The position numbers and the translations under genes are program-made. From positions 128,472 through 152,471 of the forward strand of contig DASPMC010000057.1 of NCBI GenBank assembly GCA_035627275.1: a DNA stretch of 24,000 nt, written 5' to 3'. Each line of letters starts with the position of its first letter. The stretch's first letter is position 1. Positions 2,893-20,915 of this stretch are shown piece after piece. The stretch is from Noviherbaspirillum sp. Its GTDB lineage: Bacteria > Pseudomonadota > Gammaproteobacteria > Burkholderiales > Burkholderiaceae_D. Under the pieces are notes generated by a model. The model made no database searches and was not told the origin of the DNA. It saw only the letters and a list, made by a program, of their open reading frames with translations.

Positions 2893-5631
2893 CTACTCGG
2901 ACAACCCAAGATGGCGCAGGCGCTCGATGGCCTGCAGGCGGGAGTTCACGCCCAGTTTCGCGTAGATATTCTTCATGTGCGAATTGAGCGTATTGAGAGA
3001 GATGAAGAGGGCTTCGGCAATGTCACGGTTCGACGCGCCCTTGACGATATGGCTGGCGACGAGCAGTTCCTTCTTGCTGAAGAGCTGGGACAGCGAGGGA
3101 GAGGTCTGCGCCGCATCCTGTTGCGCATCGGGGCCGAAATGGCTGAGCAATGCATGCACGGGCGATTTGTAGTCGGCACCGCGCGCAAGCTTCTTGAGCA
3201 AGGCACTGATCGCGCTGCCTTCGTTGATGAACAGTCTCAGCAGATGCGTATTTTCTGCGAGATGGACTGCCTGTTGCAGCGCAGCGAGGGCATCGTCGGT
3301 GGCGCCATTCCCCTGCAGTGCAAGGGCCTTGAGAATCGATATCTCGACCATGGCCGTCAGGCGCTTGCCTTGTTCGGCGTCCGTCCACAAGCGAGCAAGC
3401 AGCTCCAGTGCTTTTTCCCGTTGTTCGGAAGCGATGAAAAAACGCGCCAGGACGATGTAGTCCGGCTCGCATCCGATCGCCAGCCGGTCGCCGAGCGACA
3501 GTTGCACGGTTTCGCTCCAGAGCCGCATGGTATCCATCCGGCCCTGACTCAACCATAGCCTGCCGAGCTCCGCAGGCAAGGACGGAAAGTCGAAGATGGA
3601 GCGCTCAAGATATTTCATCAAGGCCGCCTCACGGGCGGGCTCCAGTCCGGCGTCAATCGCGCCCAGGGCCAGCTTGGCGCGCGCCAGTACCACGCGTCCC
3701 CAGGCGTTATAGAACGGCATGCCCGCCGCAGTCATGTCCACCGCCAAGGTCAGATGTTGCACGGCAAGGGGGAGGTCGTTCATTTCATAGGCAACATGGC
3801 CCATGCCGATGTGCAGCAATCCGCAGGCGGGGAACTCCTGCCACCCCGCTTCCTTGCATTCCTGCAGCGCGCGTTCGAACACGCTCTTTGCATTCAGCAG
3901 GCGGCCGCGCGCAAGGTATACCAGGCCCAGGCCCAAGGTGGCGGCAACCGGAGCGAGCACGTCATACCTGACTTCGGAAATGGCGGAATTTTCTTCGAAC
4001 AGTGCTTGCGCCTTGTCCAATTCGCCCAGCCGGTAGTTCCCGACACCGAGGCAGGTGCCTGTAACGCGATACATGAGCTTGCCTGGCGGGAAAGCCGCAA
4101 GCGCATCCCGCTGGTTGGACATGGCGTCCTCCAGCCGGCCGTTATAGCCGTAGTAGCATCCGCGCAACAGCGCCACCTGGGCGCGTATTGCATTTGTTGC
4201 ACCGTCGCCTGAGGTGTTTGGTGAAGTGGCGAGAAATTTCTCGATGGCGCGTATATAGCGATCCATCTCCGCCGAGTTGTCGAGGTAGAAGTTCGCCCAT
4301 GCGCAGGTAATCGACAACCCGGGGCGCCTGGTCAGCAAGTCGGGCGGCATCTGGTTGGCCCAGGCAAGGGCGGTGTTGACCTGACCGTGCGAGAACAGGC
4401 TGCGATGCTTTTCCATCAGGTTAAGGGCGAACTCGTAGTCCGTGGCCTTGATCGCCTGGTTGATCGCTTCGGTAATGAAGTTGTTCTCGCTGAACCAGCG
4501 GCTAGCTCGCCGGTGCAAGGTCTGGATCAGGTCGGGGCTGACGTTGCGCAGGCGGTTCTGCAAAAGCGACGCGAAGAGGTGGTGATAACGGTACCAGACG
4601 CGCTGGTCATCGAGGCCGACGATGAACATGTTCGCCCGCTCCATTTCGTCGATCCGTTCGCGGCTGTCATTGGTTTCCATTACTGCGTCGCACAATGGTG
4701 CGCTGAAGCGATCGAGGATCGACGTCTGCAGCAGGAAATTCTGGATCTGGATGGAACGGCTGCGCAGGACTTCGTCCAGAAGGAAGTCGGTGATATGCCG
4801 GTTGTCGCCGGCGAAGTTCTGGATGAACGCCGTCTTGTCGGGATTGTTGCGCAGCGACAGCGCAGCCAGTTGCAGGCCGACGATCCATCCTTCGGTACGC
4901 GCCGTCAGCGTTTCGACCTGGGCTTGCGGCAGGCCGAACTGCATCACGTCGTTACAGAATTCCCTCGCTTCCTCAAGAGTGAATCGCAGGTCTTGTGTGC
5001 GGTACTCCAGCAAGCGGCGTTGCGCGCGGATGCGGGAGAGCGAAAAGGGCGGGTCGTTGCGGGTGGCGAAAATAAGCTCGACCTGCGGCGGCTGATGCTC
5101 CACGAGGAAGGCGATCGCGTCATGCACCGCCGTTTCCGTTACCGCATGCAGGTCGTCGAAGATGAGGCACAGGGATTCCGGCGACTCGCACAACTGATTG
5201 ACCAGCGTTCGCATCAAGCCTGCGATCGGCGGCGGCGGACTGGCCGTCATCATTTCCATTACCACGTTGCCGAAATCGGCAAAGCGCATCTGGATCGCGT
5301 GAATGAAATGCATGAGGAACCGGACCGGATCGTTGTCGCCCGCGTCGAGCGACAGCCAGGCAACCGACGCTTCCTTGGCCTTGGCCCAGGAAGCGATCAA
5401 TGTGGTTTTTCCGTAGCCTGCCGGCGCGCAGACCAGTTTGATGCGGGAGGATTCTTCCGATTGAAGCAGGCGCGGACGCGGCACCACTTTCCCGGAGCTG
5501 CTCGGGATGACAAATTTGGTTGCGAGGATATGATCGGACGCCGTCGGATTATGAGGTAAGGCTGACGCGTTCCGAGCACTAGGTAACTGGGTCATTTGAC
5601 CACTCTCTATGTTGCGGGGCCGAGGCAACAT
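2893..5631 (-). CDS. Large ATP-binding LuxR-family (LAL / MalT-like STAND) transcriptional regulator
   Basis: Walker A CAPAGYGKTTL and Walker B-like LIFDDLH near the N-terminus. A long helical/TPR-like middle region follows. The C-terminal LuxR HTH reads ELLVASHIVKGASNRDIAEALFISLNTLNSHMKNIYAKLGV. The start is ambiguous: TTG 5661, ATG 5631 (AGGAA upstream) or ATG 5595 (GAGAGTGG upstream). Confidence 0.9.
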   Translation of the reverse strand: MLPRPRNIESGQMTQLPSARNASALPHNPTASDHILATKFVIPSSSGKVVPRPRLLQSEESSRIKLVCAPAGYGKTTLIASWAKAKEASVAWLSLDAGDNDPVRFLMHFIHAIQMRFADFGNVVMEMMTASPPPPIAGLMRTLVNQLCESPESLCLIFDDLHAVTETAVHDAIAFLVEHQPPQVELIFATRNDPPFSLSRIRAQRRLLEYRTQDLRFTLEEAREFCNDVMQFGLPQAQVETLTARTEGWIVGLQLAALSLRNNPDKTAFIQNFAGDNRHITDFLLDEVLRSRSIQIQNFLLQTSILDRFSAPLCDAVMETNDSRERIDEMERANMFIVGLDDQRVWYRYHHLFASLLQNRLRNVSPDLIQTLHRRASRWFSENNFITEAINQAIKATDYEFALNLMEKHRSLFSHGQVNTALAWANQMPPDLLTRRPGLSITCAWANFYLDNSAEMDRYIRAIEKFLATSPNTSGDGATNAIRAQVALLRGCYYGYNGRLEDAMSNQRDALAAFPPGKLMYRVTGTCLGVGNYRLGELDKAQALFEENSAISEVRYDVLAPVAATLGLGLVYLARGRLLNAKSVFERALQECKEAGWQEFPACGLLHIGMGHVAYEMNDLPLAVQHLTLAVDMTAAGMPFYNAWGRVVLARAKLALGAIDAGLEPAREAALMKYLERSIFDFPSLPAELGRLWLSQGRMDTMRLWSETVQLSLGDRLAIGCEPDYIVLARFFIASEQREKALELLARLWTDAEQGKRLTAMVEISILKALALQGNGATDDALAALQQAVHLAENTHLLRLFINEGSAISALLKKLARGADYKSPVHALLSHFGPDAQQDAAQTSPSLSQLFSKKELLVASHIVKGASNRDIAEALFISLNTLNSHMKNIYAKLGVNSRLQAIERLRHLGLSE

Positions 5632-5988
5632 CGGTTCCTGCCATGGCGAGGTTGCGGACAAGACGAAATACGCCGCTCTTCACCCCGCCCGTCGGATTTT
5701 CATACTAATAGCAAATCGGTTCTATTGCCAATTCAATACAAGTCTATGCTGAACAAGCTGCCGATTTTCCACCCTCATCGCTTACTTTATCAGCGCTGCC
5801 TTACTAGATCCTTGCGAACCGGTGCCGCCGAGGCCCGGATTCAAGCTGCGAAGATTAGCGAGGAGTTCCTGACAGCATTATGTCAGGAGCTTGGTGGTTG
5901 TAGCATTTCGGTCAATGAGCTTGGCGCGAAATCTTCTTTCGCCCCCCTGAAGGAGTGGGTGAGGATATTTCACCACAATCTTTCCGTA

Positions 5989-6023
5989 GCGATAAATGAT
6001 ATATTTTGCGGACCATTTATCGC
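5989..6023. promoter_or_regulatory. 9-bp inverted repeat GCGATAAAT-N17-ATTTATCGC immediately upstream of the LysR gene; candidate operator
   Basis: The perfect inverted repeat was read directly. It ends 19 nt before the LysR start at 6042, in the divergent LAL/LysR intergenic region. Confidence 0.35.
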
Positions 6024-6041
6024 GCATTGAAATAGATATCA

Positions 6042-6914
6042 GTGTTTGATTCCCTGTTACTTCGCAGCTTTGTTGCGGTCGTCGAGGAGGGCGGCTTCAC
6101 GCGGGCAGCCAACCGCCTGCATCTGACGCAATCCGCAGTGAGCGGACATCTCCGCAAGCTGGAGGGGGAAATCGGCAAGCCGTTGTTGCTGCGCACAACG
6201 CGCTCGATGGAGCTGACGCCGGACGGGGAAATCCTCATCGGATACGCGCGTGCGATCCTCAAGCTGAACCAGGACGTGAAAGGACAACTGGTCCGGGCAC
6301 GCTACGAGGGCATCATCCGCATCGGCGTTTCGGAAGATTTTGCCCAGGCCCATGTATTGCAGTTGCTCAAGGATTTTGCGGCGCAGCACGAAGAAACGCA
6401 GTTCTATGTGCACGTCGGCATACCGGGCATGCTGTTGCCTGCGCTCGAGCACGGCGACCTCGACATGGTGATCGGGCCGCAATGCGAATCGCGCGCCGGC
6501 GGCATCCTGCTGTGGCGCGAACCCCTGGTATGGGCTGTATCCGCGCAGTCGACCAATGCTCTGCCCAACCCGGTGCCGATGGCATTCTTTCCCGAGCCCT
6601 GTCCCTATCGCGAGGCCGCGCTGGTCCGCCTGACGAAAGAGGGTATTGAACAGCGAACTGCCATGCTGTGTGCAAGTGGCGCCAGCTTGCGCGCGGCGGT
6701 TGTGACCGGCTTCGCGGTGACACCGCTTCCGCTCAGTCAGATCGGAGACGGCATGCGCGTTCTGGAAGAGGGGCTGCCCAACTTGCCGGATGTACAGTTC
6801 ATGCTCTTTGTCGGCACCACGGTCCGGCACCCGGGCGTCAGCAAGCTGGCCGGCGCATTGATCGCGCGCTGCAAGGAACTCGCTGCGGTCTCTCCGCCGC
6901 AATCGGTTTCATAA
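6042..6914 (+). CDS. LysR-family transcriptional regulator
   Basis: The N-terminal HTH is LRSFVAVVEEGGFTRAANRLHLTQSAVSGHLRKLEGEIGKPLLLRTTRSMELTPDGE. A LysR substrate-binding-type C-terminal domain follows. GTG start. Confidence 0.9.
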   Translation: MFDSLLLRSFVAVVEEGGFTRAANRLHLTQSAVSGHLRKLEGEIGKPLLLRTTRSMELTPDGEILIGYARAILKLNQDVKGQLVRARYEGIIRIGVSEDFAQAHVLQLLKDFAAQHEETQFYVHVGIPGMLLPALEHGDLDMVIGPQCESRAGGILLWREPLVWAVSAQSTNALPNPVPMAFFPEPCPYREAALVRLTKEGIEQRTAMLCASGASLRAAVVTGFAVTPLPLSQIGDGMRVLEEGLPNLPDVQFMLFVGTTVRHPGVSKLAGALIARCKELAAVSPPQSVS

Positions 6915-6975: not shown

Positions 6976-8244
6976 TCAGTAGTAGCCATAGATCAGCTTG
7001 TAGGCTGCATCAGGCACGAAGCTTCCAGCGGGAGCGAGGCAGCCGTCCGCCTCGCCCGGCATCTTGATCCAAAGCGTCATTTCCGGCTGGCTGCCGTCGG
7101 TATGCTGTCGTGAAGTCGCGCCGAGTTTGCGACCGGGCGGGTCGCACCATTGCGATCCGTACGGACCGTTTCCATTGCGGCTGGTGTCGATCACAAACGA
7201 TTTCGAGAAGCCCCTTTGCCGCATCAATTCCGCGTTGACGGCATTACCATACGCAGCGTTATCGCCTGTAGTTTGATAGTTGGACACGTTCAGCGAGAAG
7301 CCCCGGACAGTGGCGACGCCGGCCGCGATCAGTCGGCTGGCGATGACGGATGCCGGCAGCCAGGTGCTGTTGCCAGCGTCGAGATACAGCAGGGCATTGG
7401 GCGCTTTTGAACTGAACTGTTCGACGGCATATCGGAACAGCTGGAGCCGTTCAGCCCGTGCTTCATCGTTCAGGCAGTCGAGTTGGGGCAAGGCATCCGG
7501 TTCCAGGATGACGACCGCCTTTCGTACACCGATCGCGGCGGCGAATGCACTAATCCAGGACTGGTACTCGTCGGCTGCGTTGGCGCCTCCGGCGCTGTAC
7601 TGTCCGCAATCCCTGCCGGGGATGTTGTATGCAACCAGGATAGGCATTTTCTTGAGAGCGGCTGCGGCGCCCACGTATTGGTCGACTGCGGTAGAGATAT
7701 TGCCGCTCCATCCACCAAACCATTTTCCTGCCGGATTGGCAGCAACCTGTTCCCGGATCGCCGTCGCGCGGTAATCCGATGGGTTGTTCCGCACCCATAC
7801 GGCGGCGTTCGAATCCGGATCCGTGTAGAACGAGATCGGGGTGGCTGCTGCGGACAAGCAGCCTTCTCCGCTAACCGTGATGTCTGACGGCTGCGGCTTG
7901 ACACGGCCTGAGTAAGTGAGTGCCATGCCGAAGCTGATTTTTCCGCCCGGCGCGATGCTCGGGTTCCAGCCGTTATCCGTAACAACGACGCTTCCGCCCG
8001 AGATCCGGACAGTTGCTCCCCACGGCGGATTGGTCAGCTTGACCGGGCTGTCGTAGCTCCAGCTGACTTTCCATCCGCGCACCGGCGTTGCTCCGGAATT
8101 GGTGAGGACGACATCCACAACAAAGCCAGTGGCCCAGTCGTTGCGGGTGGCATACGTTGCGGTGCATGCCGACTCGGCGTTTGCCTCGCCGCCGAGAAGT
8201 GCCGCCAACAGGAACAGGAGAGTTTTAAAATTGAGGCGCTGCAT
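6976..8244 (-). CDS. Secreted endo-beta-1,4-glucanase: N-terminal CBM2 cellulose-binding module + GH6 catalytic domain
   Basis: Signal peptide MQRLNFKTLLFLLAALLGGEANA. The CBM2-like module CTATYATRNDWATGFVVDV..WNPSIAPGGKISFG..GEGC is bounded by two Cys. GH6 motifs are YNIPGRDCG, VILEPDALP and WIKMPGEADGC. The ATG at 8244 has GGAG upstream. The ORF-track start at 8262 is TTG. Confidence 0.9.
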   Translation of the reverse strand: MQRLNFKTLLFLLAALLGGEANAESACTATYATRNDWATGFVVDVVLTNSGATPVRGWKVSWSYDSPVKLTNPPWGATVRISGGSVVVTDNGWNPSIAPGGKISFGMALTYSGRVKPQPSDITVSGEGCLSAAATPISFYTDPDSNAAVWVRNNPSDYRATAIREQVAANPAGKWFGGWSGNISTAVDQYVGAAAALKKMPILVAYNIPGRDCGQYSAGGANAADEYQSWISAFAAAIGVRKAVVILEPDALPQLDCLNDEARAERLQLFRYAVEQFSSKAPNALLYLDAGNSTWLPASVIASRLIAAGVATVRGFSLNVSNYQTTGDNAAYGNAVNAELMRQRGFSKSFVIDTSRNGNGPYGSQWCDPPGRKLGATSRQHTDGSQPEMTLWIKMPGEADGCLAPAGSFVPDAAYKLIYGYY

Positions 8245-8420
8245 ACGAGCTCCGAAAAACAAGCGACAAACACGATGTCGCGGATAGCGGGCCGGTCACC
8301 GGCGTCGCAGGTCGATAGCCGAACATGTTCTTCAAGTTAGCCGTCGACGCGGCGTGCGACTACGGGGATGCTTCGTAGTGTCGGCAAGCAGGCGCACGAC
8401 ACCACTACGGAAAACAAATC

Positions 8421-8516: not shown

Positions 8517-9332
8517 CTATACGATGGCCAGCCGGCCGGCGACGTAGGCCAGCTGGGCGCGATTCATGGCCTGGTACTTTCGGCGCAGCGCGCGAAGGTG
8601 ATAATCGATGTTGTGCACAGTCGTACGCAGACCTCGGGCAATTTCCTTGTCGCTCAACCCCTTCGATACACCTGCGAGCACATGCTTCTGCATATCGGAT
8701 AAATCATCGATTTCGGATCGCCGCATCAGGCCGGCCGTGCAGCCCTTGATGAACTCGTGTACGGAGAGTCCGAGGATGAGTGCCTGGCCCGCGATACTGG
8801 GAGCGATCCAATCCTTTGTCGTATTGGCCGAGTTGATGCAGATCGCGACCTGCATGGACGACAACGGAACCGTCAGGCTGAACGCGACTCCGCTATTCAT
8901 CCCGTGTTTCGCCAGGTCGTCGAGAAAGCTGCGCATGTGTGGACTAAGCATGTTTCCGGGTTGTGTACGAGCGAGGTAGCGCAGGTCCCAGATTAGTGGA
9001 ACCGGGCACGTCCGAATCGCTTCAAGGCGCGGATCCAGCGCATGGAAGCCTTGGCGGAAGTAGTCGGCGGTCCATTGTGCCGGCAAGTAGCTCTTGAGGA
9101 ACAAGGTCTTTTCTGTGCGCTCACCAGAAAGCTGCCGTACCTCATAGTGCAGGGAGTTGAAGCCCATGATCGACAGCATGCTGCGAATGTTCGTCATGCG
9201 CGCAGCGGGCGTCGACGCGGCTACGAGTTCGTTGGTGACGCGGAGGCGATTGTCGTAGGAGGCAGTGCCCTGGTCGAATGCGAGATCGTGCTCTTCAATG
9301 AACGTGACATCCTGGTCGTTGAAGTTCTGCAT
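8517..9332 (-). CDS. LuxR-family quorum-sensing-type regulator (autoinducer-binding domain + LuxR HTH), no cognate luxI in the window (solo)
   Basis: The autoinducer-binding signature W-x3-Y-x8-DP-x13-W (AQWTADYFRQGFHALDPRLEAIRTCPVPLIWD) has the same spacing as TraR W57/Y61/D70/P71/W85. The C-terminal HTH is LSDKEIARGLRTTVHNIDYHLRALRRKY. ATG at 9332. The ORF-track start at 9353 is TTG. Confidence 0.85.
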   Translation of the reverse strand: MQNFNDQDVTFIEEHDLAFDQGTASYDNRLRVTNELVAASTPAARMTNIRSMLSIMGFNSLHYEVRQLSGERTEKTLFLKSYLPAQWTADYFRQGFHALDPRLEAIRTCPVPLIWDLRYLARTQPGNMLSPHMRSFLDDLAKHGMNSGVAFSLTVPLSSMQVAICINSANTTKDWIAPSIAGQALILGLSVHEFIKGCTAGLMRRSEIDDLSDMQKHVLAGVSKGLSDKEIARGLRTTVHNIDYHLRALRRKYQAMNRAQLAYVAGRLAIV

Positions 9333-9550
9333 GGTCGTGGTCACTTTGCACAAGGGCGCATGGTCGGCGCCGGTTAGTCAAACAGGAAACAGGTTACTGC
9401 CGGCTTCGTACATCCGGTTGGATGCCTAAGGATGTGCGTGTCTTGGTAAAAAAGATAGCATCGGTAACGGGGCGGGAAATCGTCCCCGGTGACAATTCGT
9501 GAGACATTCACAGATATTGAGAATCCTCGGCAAGGCACGGAGAAGATAAT

Positions 9551-14504: not shown

Positions 14505-14532
14505 GGAACTGACCGGACCCTGCCGCCACTTA
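14505..14532 (+). promoter_or_regulatory. hrp box (HrpL-type promoter) for the sctI-sctL operon
   Basis: The plus strand reads GGAACT-GACCGGACCCTGCCG-CCACTTA (N15, 10 of 11 specified positions). It is divergent from, and 36 bp away from, the minus-strand box. It lies 50 nt upstream of the ATG at 14583. Confidence 0.6.
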
Positions 14533-14867: not shown

Positions 14868-15284
14868 GTGAACGAAATCACCTCAGTACCTGACCTAGCA
14901 ACAGCGTCCGCAAGCGGCATGGGCCGCACCGGCCAGCTCAGGCTGGAAATCGTGGGGGCGGAGCCGGGTGACGGCGCACAGTTCCGCGGCGCGCTCGAGC
15001 GTCACATGCAGTCCGTCCAGGGCGCGGGCGCGGTGCCCGGCGGCGGCAACAATGCTTCGCTCGGAGAGAAGATCATGGCCCGCGCCACCAACCTGGCGAG
15101 CGAAATGAAAAGTGGTGAGCAGCATGTCTCGAAGATGCTCGAGCAAGCGACCCGAAGTGCAGACCCGATGCACATGATGAAAGCGATGCTCGCGCTGAAT
15201 GATTACCAGATGCGTGTTCAGTTCGTTTCCAAAACGGCGTCGAAAGCCGCATCCTCCATCGACCAGTTGACGAAGCTGCAATAA
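14868..15284 (+). CDS. sctI: T3SS inner-rod protein SctI (HrpB/YscI/PrgJ family)
   Basis: 138 aa, GTG start with GAAGGGGG upstream. The C-terminus ALNDYQMRVQFVSKTASKAASSIDQLTKLQ aligns by eye with the PrgJ/YscI C-terminal helix (..SDYNLYVSMVSTLTRKGVGAVETLL..). It lies immediately upstream of sctJ, as hrpB does. Confidence 0.7.
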   Translation: MNEITSVPDLATASASGMGRTGQLRLEIVGAEPGDGAQFRGALERHMQSVQGAGAVPGGGNNASLGEKIMARATNLASEMKSGEQHVSKMLEQATRSADPMHMMKAMLALNDYQMRVQFVSKTASKAASSIDQLTKLQ

Positions 15285-15288
15285 GCTT

Positions 15289-16164
15289 ATGAGCGCGAAC
15301 CTTCTCGACTATCAGCATTCGCATGCCGCCTCGCTTACCGCGTCGCAGTGGCAGCGCGTGCAGACGATGCTGCTGCGGCTGTGTGTGTTCTGTCTGTTCC
15401 TCTTCCTGTGTGGTTGTTCCGAAACGACCAACCTGCAGGCAGGACTTAACGACGCCGACGCCAACGAAATCGTGTCGGTGCTGAACCGTCATGGCATCAC
15501 GGCGCAGAAGCGCACTACCAAGGAGGGCGTGACGCTCACCGTCAAGATGTCGGATATCTCACGCGCCACCGAAGTGATGCACGCTGCCGGCCTGCCAAGG
15601 CGAACCCGCACCAATCTTGGGCAGGTATTCAAGAAGGAAGGGATGATCTCCACTCCGCTCGAGGAGCGAGTGCGCTACATCCACGGGCTGTCGGAGGAGC
15701 TGGAATTCACGCTCCAACAGTTTGACAACGTGGTATCGGCGCGTGTGCACGTGGTCCTGCCGGAGCGAATTGCGCCGGGCGAACCGATCCAGCCTTCATC
15801 CGCTGCGGTATTCGTCAAGTATCGTCCGCCTTTCGACGAAGACACGGCCATTCCGCGCATCCGCAACCTGGTTGCGTCGAGCATCCCCGGGCTGTCGGGC
15901 GAAAGCGGGCATGACAAGGTATCGGTTGTGCTGGCGCCAAGCGAAGCTACCGCACCCAGGGTCGAGTGGACCCAGGTGGGGCCATTCATCGTACAGGCCG
16001 AATCGGCGGGTGGCTTGATCGCTACCCTGTTGCTGATGGCGGGCGTGGTTGCCGCGAGCCTGTTCTATGCCTTTATAGCGGGCGGCCGCCGGCAAGTGCT
16101 GGGCAACTGGGCCAGGAAACACTTCGGCAAGTCGCCCGCATTCAATGCGGGCGACGAGGGATAG
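15289..16164 (+). CDS. sctJ: T3SS inner-membrane ring lipoprotein SctJ (HrcJ/YscJ family)
   Basis: The lipobox LFLCGC is followed by LQAGLNDADANEIVSVLNRHGITAQK..GVTLTV...ATEVMHAAGLPR, then ARVHVVLPE and a C-terminal TM helix LIATLLLMAGVVAASLFYAFIAG. This is the classic YscJ/HrcJ/FliF-like architecture. Confidence 0.92.
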   Translation: MSANLLDYQHSHAASLTASQWQRVQTMLLRLCVFCLFLFLCGCSETTNLQAGLNDADANEIVSVLNRHGITAQKRTTKEGVTLTVKMSDISRATEVMHAAGLPRRTRTNLGQVFKKEGMISTPLEERVRYIHGLSEELEFTLQQFDNVVSARVHVVLPERIAPGEPIQPSSAAVFVKYRPPFDEDTAIPRIRNLVASSIPGLSGESGHDKVSVVLAPSEATAPRVEWTQVGPFIVQAESAGGLIATLLLMAGVVAASLFYAFIAGGRRQVLGNWARKHFGKSPAFNAGDEG

Positions 16165-16178
16165 CGGGGCAGTTTGCC

Positions 16179-16790
16179 ATGCTGACAGACGCATTCCTCG
16201 ATTGGTGGTTCGCGCCATGGGCATATGCGGCGCGTCCTTCAGCCTCCCTGTCCGCGCCGGATTGCCTGGGGCAGAGGGACGCCTATCGCTTGTGGTGCGA
16301 AGAAGCTCGGCTTAGACCCGACCTGCCGGAACGCTGCGATCCCGCATGGAGCTTCGCCGCCCTTTATGACGGCAGAGTACTGCTTTCCACGGCAAGGCTG
16401 TTTGCCGGACTGATGGCTGCACGTCGGCACGACCGCACGGGACTCGATGCACTTACGATCGACGATAGGAAATGGTGCGCCAGCATCTCCGCCACCCAGC
16501 CGCTGCAAAGTTTCCACACGATGCGCGTCGCATCGCCCCAGCAGGTCGAGATATGGGGACTGGTCGAGCTCGCCGTACGGCTGGAGCACGGATTTCCCGG
16601 CATGTGGTCGCGCTTGCGTTTGCTGCTTCCATCAGACATGTCGCGGGACGTGGACGGATTGTTGCGATCCGGAACCGGTGCGGGCGCCCACGTGAGCACG
16701 CCGGACCGCCGCGCGCAACGCTGCTGGCGCTTGTGCCTTGAACGTGTCGCGGATGCGGCACGGATCACGAAGGAAGGAGTGCTTCAATGA
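16179..16790 (+). CDS. HrpD-position protein, putative sorting-platform component (SctK-like)
   Basis: 203 aa starting MLTDAFLDWWFAPW. It sits between sctJ and sctL, exactly where hrpD/sctK lies in Hrp1 clusters. Its stop overlaps the sctL start (ATGA at 16787-16790). The assignment is positional. I see no diagnostic motif. Confidence 0.5.
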   Translation: MLTDAFLDWWFAPWAYAARPSASLSAPDCLGQRDAYRLWCEEARLRPDLPERCDPAWSFAALYDGRVLLSTARLFAGLMAARRHDRTGLDALTIDDRKWCASISATQPLQSFHTMRVASPQQVEIWGLVELAVRLEHGFPGMWSRLRLLLPSDMSRDVDGLLRSGTGAGAHVSTPDRRAQRCWRLCLERVADAARITKEGVLQ

Positions 16791-17425
16791 CAGGATTCTG
16801 TGTCGAGAAAATCCAGTGCGATCCGCAACTGCGCGGAGAGCATGGCGTATTGCGGGTTGCGGCGATCGCGGTGACGGCCGACGCACGCCAGGCAGCAGCC
16901 AGGATTATGCGACAGGCGCAAGATGAAGCCGATGCGCTGCTGCGGCGCGCGCATGAAGAAGCAAGCGAAGTCGTGCGGGAGGCAGAGCAGCAGACACTGG
17001 CGCGTGCGAGCGCACTATTGCAATCCCTGGAGGAAGCCAACACCAGCCTGGTGAAGCGTTCTCAAGACATCGTCATTTCGCTGGCGCAGGGCGTATTCGA
17101 TCGGCTCGTGAGTGACACCACACCGAGGGAACGTGTGGAGGCAGTCCTCAAGCGGGTGCTGCAGGAAGCGCAGCCGGGCCTGTCGCATCCCTTGCTGCGT
17201 CTGCATCCGGAGGATGTCGAACTGGCGCCGGCGGTGGAATGGGAGATCAAGCCGGACGCTTCCCTGCCGCGCGGCACATGCCGCCTCGAAGCGTCTACCG
17301 GCGAATGGGGCGCGGATTTTTGCGCAGCGGTGACCTCCCTGAAGACTGCCTTGATGCGCACGACGTCGAATACCGGCATGGACGATGGCGAATCCGACGC
17401 CTCGATTGTTCAACACAAAAACTGA
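16787..17425 (+). CDS. sctL: T3SS stator protein SctL (HrpE/YscL/FliH family)
   Basis: An N-terminal charged coiled-coil ARQAAARIMRQAQDEADALLRRAHEEASEVVREAEQQTLARA is followed by LLRLHPEDVELA and GTCRLEASTGEWGADFCAAVTSL, which is typical of the FliH/YscL C-terminal domain. Confidence 0.8.
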   Translation: MTGFCVEKIQCDPQLRGEHGVLRVAAIAVTADARQAAARIMRQAQDEADALLRRAHEEASEVVREAEQQTLARASALLQSLEEANTSLVKRSQDIVISLAQGVFDRLVSDTTPRERVEAVLKRVLQEAQPGLSHPLLRLHPEDVELAPAVEWEIKPDASLPRGTCRLEASTGEWGADFCAAVTSLKTALMRTTSNTGMDDGESDASIVQHKN

Positions 17426-17440
17426 CAAAACGGATGTCAC

Positions 17441-18268
17441 ATGAACGTTCTTTCTCATACCCCACGATTAGCCCTGCCGCCGGGCGACTCCGATTCCGTG
17501 GTAAGCATTACAGCGGTTCCTCCGCGCCCAGGACAAGGTACGGCATCCACTTCCACTCCCGCATCATCGGGACATGGCGGAGGACGCATTGGTGCGTCGG
17601 GAGATGCCCGGACGCGCGCGCGGCTGCAGGGAACGATGCGACGTCCTGCAGCGGCAGGATCGACCGGCCCGGACGCCGGAAACGTAAGGAATCTTGACGA
17701 GGGCGTTGCCCACGCCGCGAATGCCGCCCGCAAGGAAGGCTTGCTGGACGAGGAAGACGAGCGGCAAATGGCCTCACAGACGCCCTCGGAGCAGTTGCAT
17801 ACCCTCGTGGAGGCGCTCCGGCGGGCGATCAAACATCTGGCCGACGATCTGAAGGAGCAGCCTGAGGCATCGAGGGACTCGGCGGACGAAGCGCGCTTGT
17901 ATACACAGCAGGAAACGCTTGAAGCACTGTTGAAAGTCATGCAAGGGCTTGAAAGCGGGACAGCGGCATCGCCGAGGCCGGCCACCGGCAGCGGCGGCAC
18001 TGGCGATCCCGGCGGCCCTGGGGGCACCGGTGGGCCAGCAGGCGCTGCGGACGCCGAGGGCGACCACAAGGCGCACGCATCGAAGGAAGAAAAGCCACGT
18101 GCAGAGCGTGATCCCGGCAATCTTCAGGACATGATGTCGGAGTTCATGAAGATGCAGGAAATGCTCAGTACCGTCCAGGGAATGATCATCGACACCTTCC
18201 TTTCCCAGCTCAAGATGCTGACGGAAATGATCAAGAAAATCAATGAGATAGCTACCAGCGCGATCTGA
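17441..18268 (+). CDS. Novel 275-aa cysteine-free, Gly/Pro/Ser-rich acidic protein; harpin-like / T3SS-substrate candidate
   Basis: It starts 15 nt after the sctL stop. The N-terminal part (about 100 aa) is Pro/Gly/Ser/Thr/Arg-rich. A helical acidic core (LHTLVEALRRAIKHLADDLKE) follows, then the Gly-X-Y-like run GGTGDPGGPGGTGGP, then a Met-rich amphipathic C-terminus DMMSEFMKMQEMLSTVQGMIIDTFLSQLKMLTEMIKKINEIATSAI. It contains no Cys. The opposite-strand ORFs (17455..18120, 17774..18421) have R/C/H-rich shadow composition. Confidence 0.6.
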   Translation: MNVLSHTPRLALPPGDSDSVVSITAVPPRPGQGTASTSTPASSGHGGGRIGASGDARTRARLQGTMRRPAAAGSTGPDAGNVRNLDEGVAHAANAARKEGLLDEEDERQMASQTPSEQLHTLVEALRRAIKHLADDLKEQPEASRDSADEARLYTQQETLEALLKVMQGLESGTAASPRPATGSGGTGDPGGPGGTGGPAGAADAEGDHKAHASKEEKPRAERDPGNLQDMMSEFMKMQEMLSTVQGMIIDTFLSQLKMLTEMIKKINEIATSAI

Positions 18269-18293
18269 GCGATTCACAGCCGGGGACGGGAAT

Positions 18294-18323
18294 GCATGCA
18301 TGGGGCATATGCCCCATGCATGC
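18294..18323. repeat. Perfect 30-bp palindrome GCATGCATGGGGCAT|ATGCCCCATGCATGC
   Basis: Read directly: 15+15 nt with no mismatch. It lies 26 nt after the stop at 18268 and 42 nt upstream of the -35 element of the hrp box at 18365. No U-tract follows. Confidence 0.9.
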
Positions 18324-18364
18324 CGTGCTGTACGCACCCGGTAATGAAACTTGAGTAATTCAAG

Positions 18365-18392
18365 CGAACCGTCCACCCACTCCTGCCACTTA
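18365..18392 (+). promoter_or_regulatory. hrp box (HrpL-type promoter) for the sctF-like/chaperone/sctC operon
   Basis: CGAACC-GTCCACCCACTCCTG-CCACTTA (N15, 10 of 11 specified positions). It shares the -10 context TGCCACTTAT with the box at 14505. It lies 50 nt upstream of the ATG at 18443. Confidence 0.5.
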
Positions 18393-18442: not shown

Positions 18443-18682
18443 ATGTCAAACAGTCTCAGCACGGCCCACACCATGTCCGCTTTGCGTCGTCTGACTAACA
18501 GGTTCGATGCCGCCGGCGATCAGATCAATGACTTCGCCCACCGCCAAGCGCAAGGGGAAAACCCCGATCCCGCCGAATTCATGAAATTGCTTGAACAGCG
18601 TTCAGTAACCGGGCAGGCCATGCAAGCCCAGTTCAAGCTTCGCGAAAAACCACTGAAGACCGTCCTCAACGAAACGCGATAA
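18443..18682 (+). CDS. sctF: T3SS needle-filament-type protein (SctF/PrgI/MxiH/YscF-like), in the hrpF position
   Basis: 79 aa, no Cys, SD AAGGAG 5 nt before the ATG. By eye, RFDAAGDQI matches PrgI KFDTGVDNL. The central loop NPDPAEF matches the needle P-(S/D)-(D/N)-P turn (PrgI KPSDPALL). The C-terminus ..VLNETR compares with PrgI ..IIQNFR. Confidence 0.65.
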   Translation: MSNSLSTAHTMSALRRLTNRFDAAGDQINDFAHRQAQGENPDPAEFMKLLEQRSVTGQAMQAQFKLREKPLKTVLNETR

Positions 18683-18687
18683 GCAGC

Positions 18688-19104
18688 ATGGATGTTTACG
18701 GCGATCTGGAACGGTGGCTCGACAGCCTGCCGCTGGACGAGGCCGTGGAGATTGACGGCGAAACAGTCTTCCTGAAGATCCATGCAGCCGGCGCGGAACT
18801 CGGTGTTTGCCTGCTCCGCACCTGCACACAGACCCAGATTCAGGATGCCTTGCGAATGGGCTTTGCAAGTGCCATCACCCATGACGCCGGGTTGGGGTTG
18901 TCTGCCGACGGCAAGGACCTGCTGCTTACCCAGTGGTTGCCACAGGCAAAACGATGGACACAGGCGGCGAAGGCACTGGAAAACCTGTTGAACCAGACCG
19001 CCACCTGGCGCGCTGCGCTCGCGCCACGGGCCGCCGAATCTGTGGGCGTCGCCGACCGACACGAGCGGCGTCTGCGCACATTGCTGGCAGGGGGGAAACG
19101 ATGA
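18688..19104 (+). CDS. Putative T3SS chaperone-like protein (hrpG position)
   Basis: 138 aa and acidic, MDVYGDLERWLDSLPLDEAVEIDGETVFLKIH... has the size and N-terminal pattern of CesT/SycE-type class I chaperones. It lies between the needle-like gene and sctC, and its stop overlaps the sctC start (ATGA at 19101-19104). The call is mostly positional. Confidence 0.45.
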   Translation: MDVYGDLERWLDSLPLDEAVEIDGETVFLKIHAAGAELGVCLLRTCTQTQIQDALRMGFASAITHDAGLGLSADGKDLLLTQWLPQAKRWTQAAKALENLLNQTATWRAALAPRAAESVGVADRHERRLRTLLAGGKR

Positions 19105-20915
19105 AATTCTTGAACATCAAGCGTTGTCTGGCCGTGATGATGATTGGCGCAGGCCTGCTCTGGTCGTCGTCCGCGCAAGCCGCCACGCCGGACAGCTGGA
19201 AGGACAGCGGGTTTTCCATCAATGCCTCGGGCATGCCTTTGCGCGATGTCATGCAAGAGTTCGGTAATGCCTTCGGCGTGCGCGTGTCCTACAGCCTTAA
19301 AGAGAGCCACGTGCTGAAAAGCCGACTGAAAGCCGATAGCGGCATCGAGTTCCTGGACAGGCTGACGCATTCGTACAAGTTCCGCTGGTTCGTTTACAAC
19401 GGCACTTTGTATATCGTACCCAGCAACGACAATGTCTCGGTGCGTCTTGAAGTCGGCGAGGATGCGGTACAGGACGCCAAGTCCGCTCTCGTTGGCCTGG
19501 GCCTGTTCGACAACCGCTTTGGCTGGGGCGAGCTGCCCGACGAAGGTGTGGTGATGGTCAGCGGCCCGCGTGAATACATCAACCTTGCGCGCGAAATCCT
19601 GCTTCCCGAAAACCGGGCGTCCGCACCCAAGGGCAAGCAACTCATGGTCTTCCGGCTCAAGTACGCCAGCGCGACCGACCGTGTGATAAACACGCGTGGC
19701 CAGAAGGAAACCATCCCCGGCATCAAGACCATCCTTGCAGGCCTGCTCAACCCTGACCGGCCTGCCGCCGGGCATGGCGGGCGCGACGATGTCGATGTAT
19801 CGAGCAGTAAGCGTTCGCTCAAGGGAAAGTACGGACGAGGAGACGCCTCAGAATCGGGCGCGCGCACGGCTGGCGGGCGGTTGCAGCAAGAGATCGAGGA
19901 CGAGGACGATCAGGACGCGAGGCGGTCGCGCCGGGCGAAGGAAACGCAGCGCTCCACGGGACCGCGGATCGACGCGGACGCCTCGCTGAACGCCATCATC
20001 ATCTACGACCATGCCAGCAAGCGCCAGATGTACCAGTCGCTGATTGCCGAGCTGGATGTCGAGCCGCAGCAGATCGAGATCGAGGCGCTCATCGTCGATA
20101 TCGATCGCAGCAGGCTGGCAGAATTGGGCGTTGAATGGGGCGCGCGTAACGGCAATACCAACCTGCGCGTCAATGCCACCTCCCGGGATTCGCAAGGCGA
20201 CGACCTGCCGATTCCAGGTGCGACGCTCCTGATCAGCAATGCGGCCCGCTTCTACGCGCGGCTCAAGGCGCTCGAAGGAACGGGCGAGGCCAATGTGCTG
20301 GCCAAGCCGACGGTCCTGACACTGGACAACGTCGCTGCCGTGCTCGACCTGAGCCAGACGTCCTACCTGCCGCTCGTCGGCGAGCGTGTTGCCGATCTTG
20401 CCAATGTCACCGCCGGTACCATGTTGCGGGTCGTGCCGCGCATCGTGAAAGAGAATACCGGCACCCGGGTACGGCTTGAAGTCGACATCGAAGACGGTTC
20501 CCTGGGCGATCCCAACCAGAAGAACACGGTAGCGACGCGTTCGACCATCAGCACCCAGGCAATCGTCGACTTGCAGCAAACCCTGATGATCGGCGGCTAC
20601 CACGCGGAGTCGAGGACGATCAACAAGCAGAAAGTGCCGGTGCTGGGCGATATGCCGCTGTTAGGCGGACTGTTCCGCAGCGAAAACGAGCAGCATAACA
20701 ATCGCGAGCGCTTGTTCCTTATCACGCCGCGTGTCCGGACAGCAGCGGGCATGCCCGCACCGGAGCGCTCGAAGCTTGGCGGCATTGCACAGGGGATCGC
20801 GGCGGCGGAGCAGGCCATGGCAGCGGCTGTGGACGGGACAGGTGCAGCACCCGCGCCGAAGCGGAAGCTGAAATGCGCCCGGCCGAAACCGGGGTTTCAG
20901 TCGGCGTTGCAGTAG
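19101..20915 (+). CDS. sctC: T3SS outer-membrane secretin SctC (HrcC/YscC/InvG family)
   Basis: Signal peptide MKFLNIKRCLAVMMIGAGLLWSSSAQA. The N-domain reads GMPLRDVMQEFGNAFGVRVSYS..FRWFVYNGTLYIVP. The secretin core reads NVLAKPTVLTLDNVAAVLDLSQTSYLPL.. and VPVLGDMPLLGGLFRSENEQHNNRERLFLITPRV. The ORF-track start at 18933 is an out-of-context extension that overlaps the upstream gene. Confidence 0.92.
   Translation: MKFLNIKRCLAVMMIGAGLLWSSSAQAATPDSWKDSGFSINASGMPLRDVMQEFGNAFGVRVSYSLKESHVLKSRLKADSGIEFLDRLTHSYKFRWFVYNGTLYIVPSNDNVSVRLEVGEDAVQDAKSALVGLGLFDNRFGWGELPDEGVVMVSGPREYINLAREILLPENRASAPKGKQLMVFRLKYASATDRVINTRGQKETIPGIKTILAGLLNPDRPAAGHGGRDDVDVSSSKRSLKGKYGRGDASESGARTAGGRLQQEIEDEDDQDARRSRRAKETQRSTGPRIDADASLNAIIIYDHASKRQMYQSLIAELDVEPQQIEIEALIVDIDRSRLAELGVEWGARNGNTNLRVNATSRDSQGDDLPIPGATLLISNAARFYARLKALEGTGEANVLAKPTVLTLDNVAAVLDLSQTSYLPLVGERVADLANVTAGTMLRVVPRIVKENTGTRVRLEVDIEDGSLGDPNQKNTVATRSTISTQAIVDLQQTLMIGGYHAESRTINKQKVPVLGDMPLLGGLFRSENEQHNNRERLFLITPRVRTAAGMPAPERSKLGGIAQGIAAAEQAMAAAVDGTGAAPAPKRKLKCARPKPGFQSALQ

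Follow-up and report, generated by a model that had tools for sequence, protein, structure and literature searches.

The stretch of Noviherbaspirillum sp. [quoted passage not shown] Between sctL (hrpE, 16787–17425) and the gene in the hrpF position (18443–18682) we found a 275-aa open reading frame (ORF) on the plus strand (17441–18268), exactly as a preliminary description of this DNA had reported; we call it X275. The features of the locus are as follows.

14506–14529, plus strand: hrp-box-like promoter (GAACT-N15-CCAC, motif match) ahead of the sctI-sctL-X275 operon
14868–15284, plus strand: sctI (hrpB), inner rod (Pfam T3SS_basalb_I, E = 7e-18)
15289–16164, plus strand: sctJ (hrcJ) (Pfam YscJ_FliF, E = 2e-26)
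16179–16790, plus strand: hrpD-position gene (sctK-like), assigned by position, a syntenic 203-aa gene in metagenome contig L001 and tblastn matches across relatives
16787–17425, plus strand: sctL (hrpE) (Pfam HrpE, E = 2e-9; FliH, E = 1e-8)
17441–18268, plus strand: X275, 275 aa, ATG start, Cys-free, predicted last gene of the operon
18279–18342, plus strand: GC-rich hairpin formed around a 30-bp palindrome; it lies 3′ of the X275 stop and 5′ of the next hrp box
18366–18389, plus strand: hrp-box-like promoter of the hrpF-position operon (motif match; kept in contigs L001 and L002)
18443–18682, plus strand: 79-aa gene in the hrpF position; no other gene of the locus is as conserved
18688–19104, plus strand: hrpG-position gene, CesT-like T3SS chaperone (NCBIfam CesT_sub, E = 1.5e-11, below the curated cut-off)
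19101–20915, plus strand: sctC (hrcC), secretin (Pfam Secretin, E = 3e-34; Secretin_N, E = 2e-17)

The genes upstream of X275 are tightly packed: the hrpD-position gene, for which no Pfam match was found, overlaps the sctL start by 4 nt, and X275 starts 15 nt 3′ of sctL. The hrp-box-like motif matches four times in the window against 1.1 matches expected by chance, the box at 14506 is the last one before X275, and a motif scan of the window found none between sctL and X275. The hairpin 3′ of X275 folds as RNA at −42.8 kcal/mol (z = −4.2), and its 30-bp palindrome is largely kept in L001 and L002; the second hrp box and, after it, a strong ribosome-binding site for the 79-aa gene are kept in both contigs. 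Because hrp boxes are located at 14506 and 18366 with none between sctL and X275, and because the hairpin follows the stop, X275 is predicted to be the terminal gene of an HrpL-type (hrp-box) operon, sctI-sctJ-hrpD-sctL-X275, with no promoter of its own. The split of operons at X275 corresponds to the separate hrpB-hrpE and orf10-hrcC operons of Herbaspirillum rubrisubalbicans (PMC3487950).

X275 is a genuine protein-coding gene. No frame other than its plus-strand one is open in each of the three close sequences (the window, L001 and L002), and pS exceeds pN in every segment, the first 65 codons included; the frame is therefore real. An opposite-strand ORF, raised earlier as a possible expressed product, was ruled out by stops at inconsistent places in the minus-strand frames. 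The ATG at 17441 and the 20 nt preceding it are kept in the close homologues. In the annotation of the genome itself the gene begins at Met66 (position 17636; P0001, 210 aa), which is preceded by a better Shine-Dalgarno-like sequence than the ATG at 17441. Conservation favours the long form, and a shorter isoform may start from Met66.

The protein contains no Cys, 11.3% Gly and 6.5% Pro, and has a pI of 5.33. Its N-terminus is rich in Ser/Thr/Pro, with Val-Leu at residues 3–4 and no Asp/Glu among residues 1–12, and X275 and its two close homologues satisfy simple P. syringae N-terminal T3 signal rules. The lack of Cys, the acidity, the Gly run and the Ser/Thr/Pro-rich N-terminus stated in the preliminary description are thus all present, as is the Met-rich C-terminal helix, in whose heptad pattern hydrophobic residues take 11 of 15 core positions. 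As regards a role as a translocator, no transmembrane segment was found in X275 (maximum 19-residue Kyte-Doolittle mean, 0.9). The claimed A/T enrichment of third codon positions turned out to be marginal when we ran the GC3 check, since GC3 is 0.66 in X275 versus 0.65–0.76 in the neighbouring genes.

The T3SS cluster of this genome is split, and its remainder lies on contig C100, which carries hrpJ-like, sctV, sctD, sctN, sctQ, sctR, sctS, sctT and sctU genes and a Cys-rich ORF with a conserved motif. The break between C100 and the window falls exactly where canonical clusters join onto sctI. Another contig, C120, was ruled out as the missing half because it holds a separate, complete injectisome of another type. 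On C100, a 167-aa ORF directly follows sctN in the sctO position, and the sctP position, flanked by that ORF and sctQ, holds a Pro-rich ORF of 201 aa. Because these positions are filled, and because X275 follows sctL, is mostly disordered and ends in a single helix without a globular domain, it is unlikely to be the SctO stalk or the ruler SctP, although a ruler-type substrate had been among the initial suggestions. No hrpA-like gene was recognised elsewhere in the split cluster (the window plus C100).

Homology searches with X275 returned very few sequences. A phmmer search against 1.8 billion representatives gave only the two close homologues (62–64% identity, 262 aa, on the Logan metagenome contigs L001 and L002 with the same neighbour genes) and a distant full-length one, P0005 (28% identity, E = 4e-4); two further matches were low-complexity. 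With tblastn no match was found in 72,556 plasmids, and word-indexed searches with the single protein, the full alignment or the core alignment returned only “hypothetical proteins”. A PDB sequence profile search gave only generic coiled coils. Neither Pfam nor NCBIfam yielded a match above noise for X275 or any of the 10 family members, and Pfam gave none to the SctF needle family (PF09392). The 79-aa hrpF-position protein likewise had no Pfam or PDB sequence match, solved needle proteins included.

The slot between sctL and the hrpF-position gene was surveyed in 301 genomes of the taxonomic family by anchoring on sctL, and a second time with the 79-aa hrpF-like gene or its alignment as the anchor in the genome collection. 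A minority of the surveyed loci carry a gene after sctL, and many of these genes share an extreme C-terminal motif, K(K/R)xNxIA(T/A)SA(I/L), despite differing lengths; the module of X275 ends in KKxNEIATSAI. Only the last ~50–75 residues align across members. A profile of the last 75 residues recovered members at E values of 1e-18 to 1e-30 and nothing else in the loci, and the core profile matched 9 of 401 sampled genomes, the window's own among them. The carriers are G137, G153, G321, G312, G369, Massilia atriviolacea, M. aquatica, Duganella sp. CT11-25 and metagenome contigs, and the family's genera are Massilia, Duganella, Undibacterium and uncultured relatives; Undibacterium sp. TS12 gave a weak full-length match. 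Every member lies directly downstream of sctL, and all those in public sources are annotated as “hypothetical protein”.

The members differ greatly in length: 78 aa in both M. aquatica and M. violaceinigra, 185 aa in G321, 215 aa in G312, 262 aa in each of L001 and L002, 263 aa for P0005, 275 aa in the window, 311 aa in M. atriviolacea, at most 320 aa in Duganella sp. CT11-25 (ORF from the first in-frame ATG, inside the sctL end), 341 aa in G137 and 560 aa in G153. The region ahead of the module, which is disordered, low-complexity and Cys-free, ranges from 0 to about 480 residues. All core members have no Cys and no transmembrane segment, and several members have acidic residues within the first 12 positions. 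The family core and the hrpF-position family are not paralogues, because hhalign aligned them with a probability of only 0.8%. The X275 family is new and unnamed and, as far as sampled, confined to one sub-lineage of Hrp1-organised T3SS clusters of soil Oxalobacteraceae.

The family comparison bears directly on the harpin-like character attributed to X275 in the preliminary description. One possible interpretation is that X275 is a helper or accessory translocation factor of the HrpZ/HrpN kind, which would act at the host wall or membrane and would not polymerise. The hrpZ gene of P. syringae sits in the same operon as hrpB-hrpE, as X275 does here, and X275 is Cys-free, acidic and fast-evolving, with 11% Gly, a Gly/Pro linker and amphipathic helices. 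Across the family, however, Gly ranges from 2.6 to 12.5% and pI from 5.3 to 9.3, the 78-aa members have no Gly-rich region, and even the nearest homologues, L001 and L002, have an 11-residue deletion at the Gly run. In addition, neither Pfam nor NCBIfam gave a harpin-family match for X275 and 10 members, and the conserved part is one terminal helix, which is no known harpin hallmark. The traits first described are real properties of X275, but neither the Gly run nor the acidity is a conserved trait of the family, and for this reason the harpin interpretation is weak and we consider it unlikely.

Canonical Hrp1 clusters had been said to have nothing between hrpE and hrpF, and our survey agrees: in 19 named loci from Oxalobacteraceae, sctL and the hrpF-position gene are separated by 138–281 bp of empty sequence, consistent with the operons of H. 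rubrisubalbicans, hrpB-hrpE and orf10-hrcC (PMC3487950). These loci include Herbaspirillum sp. SJZ106, LeCh32-8, CF444, YR522 and RV1423, several Duganella and Pseudoduganella, and one Collimonas MAG; in them sctU and the Cys-rich ORF lie directly upstream of sctI, making one contiguous cluster. In G103, whose canonical cluster is complete, nothing recognisable as a counterpart of X275 was found. The sctL and hrpF operons run divergently in Massilia and some Duganella, and there the X275-family gene remains with sctL. Two Herbaspirillum genomes of the same genus, G005 and G017, have a 231–262-aa protein in the slot that is laid out like X275: its N-terminus is disordered and its middle helical, and a poly-Pro linker precedes a helix at the C-terminus. 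Homology of this protein to the X275 family was not detectable.

In a midpoint-rooted FastTree tree of concatenated sctJ and sctL, the loci were separated into two sub-lineages. One contains all family members, the look-alikes of G005 and G017, and a few loci with other content after sctL, and the other contains all the canonical contiguous clusters with the empty slot. No homologue of X275 was detectable in this canonical sister sub-lineage, including the functional H. rubrisubalbicans type, so that the protein is not a universal core part. Because the tree puts all carriers in one sub-lineage, the X275 gene is ancestral to that T3SS sub-lineage and highly divergent rather than a recent insertion, and recent insertion or horizontal acquisition in this genome is ruled out by the tree and the synteny. 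To call the gene “inserted”, as was done at first, is accordingly misleading, and the suggested separate acquisition is not supported, the gene being common to the whole T3SS sub-lineage.

Fast evolution, the other explanation offered for the unusual composition, is supported. The dN/dS of X275 is 0.26–0.46 (0.32–0.46 in the N-terminal segment of 65 codons) versus 0.09 for sctL, 0.03 for the hrpF-like gene and 0.19 for the hrpG-like gene, and its amino-acid identity to L001 is 62% versus 84–95% for sctL, the chaperone-like gene and the 79-aa gene, the last of which reaches 95%. This rate is relevant to the possibility that X275 is not secreted and serves the sorting platform or ATPase complex in the cytoplasm as an accessory, for instance as a coiled-coil protein that pairs with SctL and is translated together with it. 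Such a role would suit a gene placed immediately after sctL, whose call in L001 overlaps the sctL stop, and a helical, coiled-coil-like product that matches only generic coiled coils. However, X275 has a dN/dS 3–10 times that of sctL and the hrpF-like gene, and a stoichiometric cytoplasmic part would not typically range from 78 to 560 aa or have a disordered, low-complexity N-terminus. The family is also absent from the sister sub-lineage that has the same sctL, and C100 already has ORFs in the SctO and SctP positions; we regard a cytoplasmic accessory as rather improbable.

The structure of X275 was predicted by AlphaFold2 (AF2) with a 10-sequence alignment, giving a mean pLDDT of 59. Together with the alignments, the prediction divides the protein into four regions.

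17441–17680, plus strand: residues 1–80, disordered and rich in Ser/Thr/Pro/Gly/Ala; candidate secretion signal and variable region
17693–17965, plus strand: residues 85–175, helical region with helices at 85–98, 104–111, 115–139 and 147–175 (AF2 block with pLDDT 69–92)
17966–18112, plus strand: residues 176–224, disordered Gly/Pro-rich linker with the Gly run, 11 residues of which are missing in the closest homologues
18113–18265, plus strand: residues 225–275, long amphipathic heptad helix, the conserved family module (alignment and AF2)

Residues 1–77 and 174–222 had pLDDT below 50, as disordered segments do, and the C-terminus was modelled as one long helix from 225 to 274, the core aligning as a continuous helix and not as a hairpin. 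The 78-aa member was predicted with a pLDDT of 88.9 and a pTM of 0.69 as helix 2–29, a loop and helix 36–77, and the 78-aa Massilia members are thus confidently predicted to be the bare family core in the form of an alpha-hairpin. Both models contain helices and disordered segments only. Foldseek searches of the PDB with the two models gave only generic helical bundles and hairpins (best E = 1.6 and 0.23), and T3SS needle proteins were absent from the top 50 matches of the 78-aa model. The predicted fold is compatible with a needle- or pilin-type protomer, without specific support for one.

The disordered, signal-like N-terminus could also belong to an effector or a secreted regulator. X275 would then be a client of the neighbouring CesT-like chaperone in the hrpG position, whose gene is two genes downstream; its N-terminus would comprise the signal and a chaperone-binding region, and its C-terminal helix would bind a target or regulator. 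The high variability of the family in length and sequence is common for effectors. A gene fixed at one operon position within machinery genes across genera is, however, unusual for an effector, the 78-aa members are too small for a chaperone-binding region plus an effector domain, and the chaperone gene is equally present in clusters without X275. An effector or regulator thus seems to us quite improbable.

The general idea that X275 is a probable T3SS substrate fits, because the gene is the apparent last one in an hrp-box operon, the protein is Cys-free with a disordered N-terminus that satisfies the signal rules, and it evolves fast; by these features X275 would be a lineage-specific substrate. 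As only the C-terminal helix is conserved, X275 is probably a secreted surface part of the machine, and it is compatible with a protein of the needle-tip or filament type. Known Hrp pilins are 63–113 aa long (PMC3973906), alpha-helical except for the N-terminus and non-homologous between taxa; their exposed N-terminus varies, and their polymerisation domain, at the C-terminus, is conserved (PMC3973906; PMC5217246). We tentatively prefer to see X275 as a secreted subunit of a pilus or filament, or one associated with a pilus, whose variable N-terminus is exposed on the surface, although we would put its chances at somewhat below even. We infer the secretion, extracellular location, polymerisation and partners of X275 as follows. 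The protein would be exported by the T3SS and act outside the cell, where it would either be a subunit of a pilus or filament or dock onto the pilus. Assembly or docking would depend on its conserved C-terminal helix; its N-terminal part, which varies, would be exposed on the surface and free to diverge. The HrpF-like and HrpG-like (CesT-type) neighbours are the obvious candidate partners, because in P. syringae the pilin HrpA1 is bound and stabilised by HrpF, which also binds HrpG (PMC8228185), and here a CesT-type gene is next to the hrpF-position gene.

The pilus interpretation is kept tentative because searches of Pfam, NCBIfam, PDB sequences and plasmids, and with Foldseek, connected X275 by neither sequence nor fold to a known pilin, needle, tip or filament protein, because X275 is far longer than 63–113 aa, because the sister sub-lineage does not have the family, and because secretion is predicted from the sequence. 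The continuous helix of the X275 core and the acidic residues near the N-terminus of several members also count against it, and the 79-aa hrpF-position protein could itself be the needle. On that basis one can imagine a more specific and, in our view, doubtful arrangement, in which the X275 family would make up T3SS filament subunits of a new class: a hairpin of the 78-aa type would polymerise on a needle made of the 79-aa hrpF-position protein, and in many lineages, that of the window among them, a long disordered N-terminal extension (up to ~480 residues) would coat the pilus and diversify under host or environmental pressure. Such a filament on the hrpF-position needle would be analogous to EscF/EspA; to our knowledge, a “decorated” Hrp pilus of this kind has not been described so far.

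Oxalobacteraceae with an Hrp1-type T3SS (for example Herbaspirillum, Massilia, Duganella and Collimonas) include plant endophytes, fungus-associated bacteria and soil bacteria. We know of no extracellular part of their Hrp1-type T3SS identified so far, and the only functional study of the cluster reportedly lists eleven “hypothetical” genes. The X275 family, which is syntenic, hypervariable and Cys-free with one conserved terminal helix, is a concrete candidate for such a part and also marks one of the two cluster sub-lineages. Massilia aquatica, M. atriviolacea, M. violaceinigra and Duganella sp. CT11-25 are cultivable carriers in which secretion and appendages can be tested.

Several known T3SS proteins resemble X275 in part. 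The harpins HrpZ, HrpN and HrpW are likewise Cys-free, acidic, moderately Gly-rich, helical and encoded in hrp clusters, but these traits are not family-wide for X275, and X275 has no pectate-lyase or other second domain. The SctP/HrpP rulers share with it the hypervariable length, the Pro-rich disordered region and a conserved C-terminal module; this module is, however, a globular T3S4 domain and not a single helix or hairpin, and the gene is located between sctO and sctQ instead of after sctL. The SctO stalk is a two-helix coiled coil of about 150 aa encoded after sctN, whereas X275 comes after sctL. For the SctF needle, an alpha-hairpin of ~80 aa, the comparison is mixed: the 78-aa member is predicted to be a hairpin, but its Foldseek matches are generic and its top 50 include no needle proteins, and the core of X275 is predicted to be one long helix.

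The EspA-type filament and SctA tip proteins (EspA, Bsp22, LcrV and IpaD) are similar in having a coiled coil of a middle helix and a long C-terminal helix, with a critical C-terminus, and like them X275 could extend or cap a short needle made of another small protein. They differ in that no sequence or Foldseek similarity connects them to X275, and in that tip proteins are globular and not hypervariable in length, whereas the 78-aa members of the X275 family are a predicted hairpin only.

The comparison with Hrp pilins (HrpA of P. syringae and Erwinia, HrpY of Ralstonia, HrpE of Xanthomonas and NopA of rhizobia) is two-sided. Their 63–113 aa contrast with the 275 aa of X275 and up to 560 aa of its relatives, and only the 78-aa Massilia members reach the pilin size range; hrpA is at the 5′ end of its operon whereas X275 is at the 3′ end, and X275 gave no pilin-family match in Pfam or NCBIfam. 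Sequence similarity between Hrp pilins is not expected across taxa. On the other hand, Hrp pilins are also encoded in an hrp-box operon of an Hrp-type cluster, are alpha-helical besides a disordered N-terminus, and combine a variable N-terminus with a conserved C-terminus, and next to X275 lies the hrpF-position gene, the counterpart of which has a pilin-stabilising role in P. syringae. Should X275 indeed prove to be a subunit of the pilus, Hrp pilins would span a wider range of sizes and architectures than is known at present.

The gene call made for the X275 locus in the window's own genome (P0001, 210 aa) begins at window 17636, which is Met66 of the 275-aa X275, and AGGGAA, a Shine-Dalgarno-like sequence, precedes this Met66 start. 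The ATG further upstream, at 17441, is kept in homologues, but its Shine-Dalgarno sequence is weak. One possible interpretation is that X275 has two isoforms, starting at 17441 and 17636. After the X275 stop and before the next hrp box, a 30-bp perfect palindrome is predicted to form a hairpin (window 18279-18342) of very high stability (-42.8 kcal/mol, z -4.2) and without a U-tract. The palindrome is mostly kept, with some changes in the stem, in L001 and L002, the metagenome contigs with the closest X275 homologues.

The slot between sctL and the hrpF-position gene also holds other proteins. In Paraherbaspirillum soli (L042), it is occupied by two Cys-containing ORFs with high GC3:

L042:3261-4724 (-), 487-aa ORF (3878-5341 once the locus is reverse-complemented)
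L042:2439-3179 (-), 246-aa ORF (5423-6163 once the locus is reverse-complemented)

Neither resembles the X275 family, and they may represent unrelated cargo that entered between the two operons. In two same-genus genomes, the slot contains a look-alike (L040:3749-4537 in G005; L041:3721-4416 in G017, Herbaspirillum sp. CPCC 101687) without detectable homology to the X275 family. Its N-terminus is disordered and its middle helical, and a poly-Pro linker then leads to a C-terminal helix terminating in ..MIEDWGRIGN. The ORF in the ~590 bp 3' of this look-alike looks non-coding, judged by codon-position GC. The loci of one genus, g64 (L049, L052 and L054-L056), represent a third cluster arrangement, in which what comes after sctL is not the hrpF/hrpG/sctC operon but a conserved Cys-containing ORF of 161-177 aa and an ORF of 294 aa. 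A 713-aa Cys-free protein of genome G103, encoded a few kb off a canonical T3SS cluster (45-2186 on the reverse-complemented join of L107 and L108), is built with repeats of ..QDGLLGQ.. units and is possibly a secreted substrate.

Upstream of the T3SS half-cluster, the window encodes three proteins that fit a plant- or fungus-associated lifestyle:

2893-5661 (-), MalT-like LuxR-family regulator
6976-8262 (-), GH6 cellulase with a CBM2 domain
8517-9353 (-), LuxR-type autoinducer-binding regulator

The window's genome, G000, contains four SctN/SctV-type pairs in total, on contigs C42, C57, C100 and C120. C120 carries a self-contained injectisome that is distinct from the window's and of a different type; a second secretin and PilO-like genes adjoin it.

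Genes of the C120 injectisome (L095:1838-14001)
sctJ, YscK-like, sctL, sctN, HpaP-like, sctQ, sctR
SLT transglycosylase
secretin with a TcpQ domain at its C-terminal end

The second half of the window's Hrp1-type T3SS was found on C100.

Genes of the C100 half-cluster (L097:6334-19191, minus strand)
hrpJ-like, sctV, sctD, sctN
167-aa ORF at the sctO position
201-aa Pro-rich ORF at the sctP position
sctQ, R, S, T, U
166-aa ORF with a Cys-rich motif at its end

In canonical clusters the Cys-rich ORF lies immediately 5' of sctI; the G000 cluster, with this ORF on C100, is therefore broken exactly at this junction.
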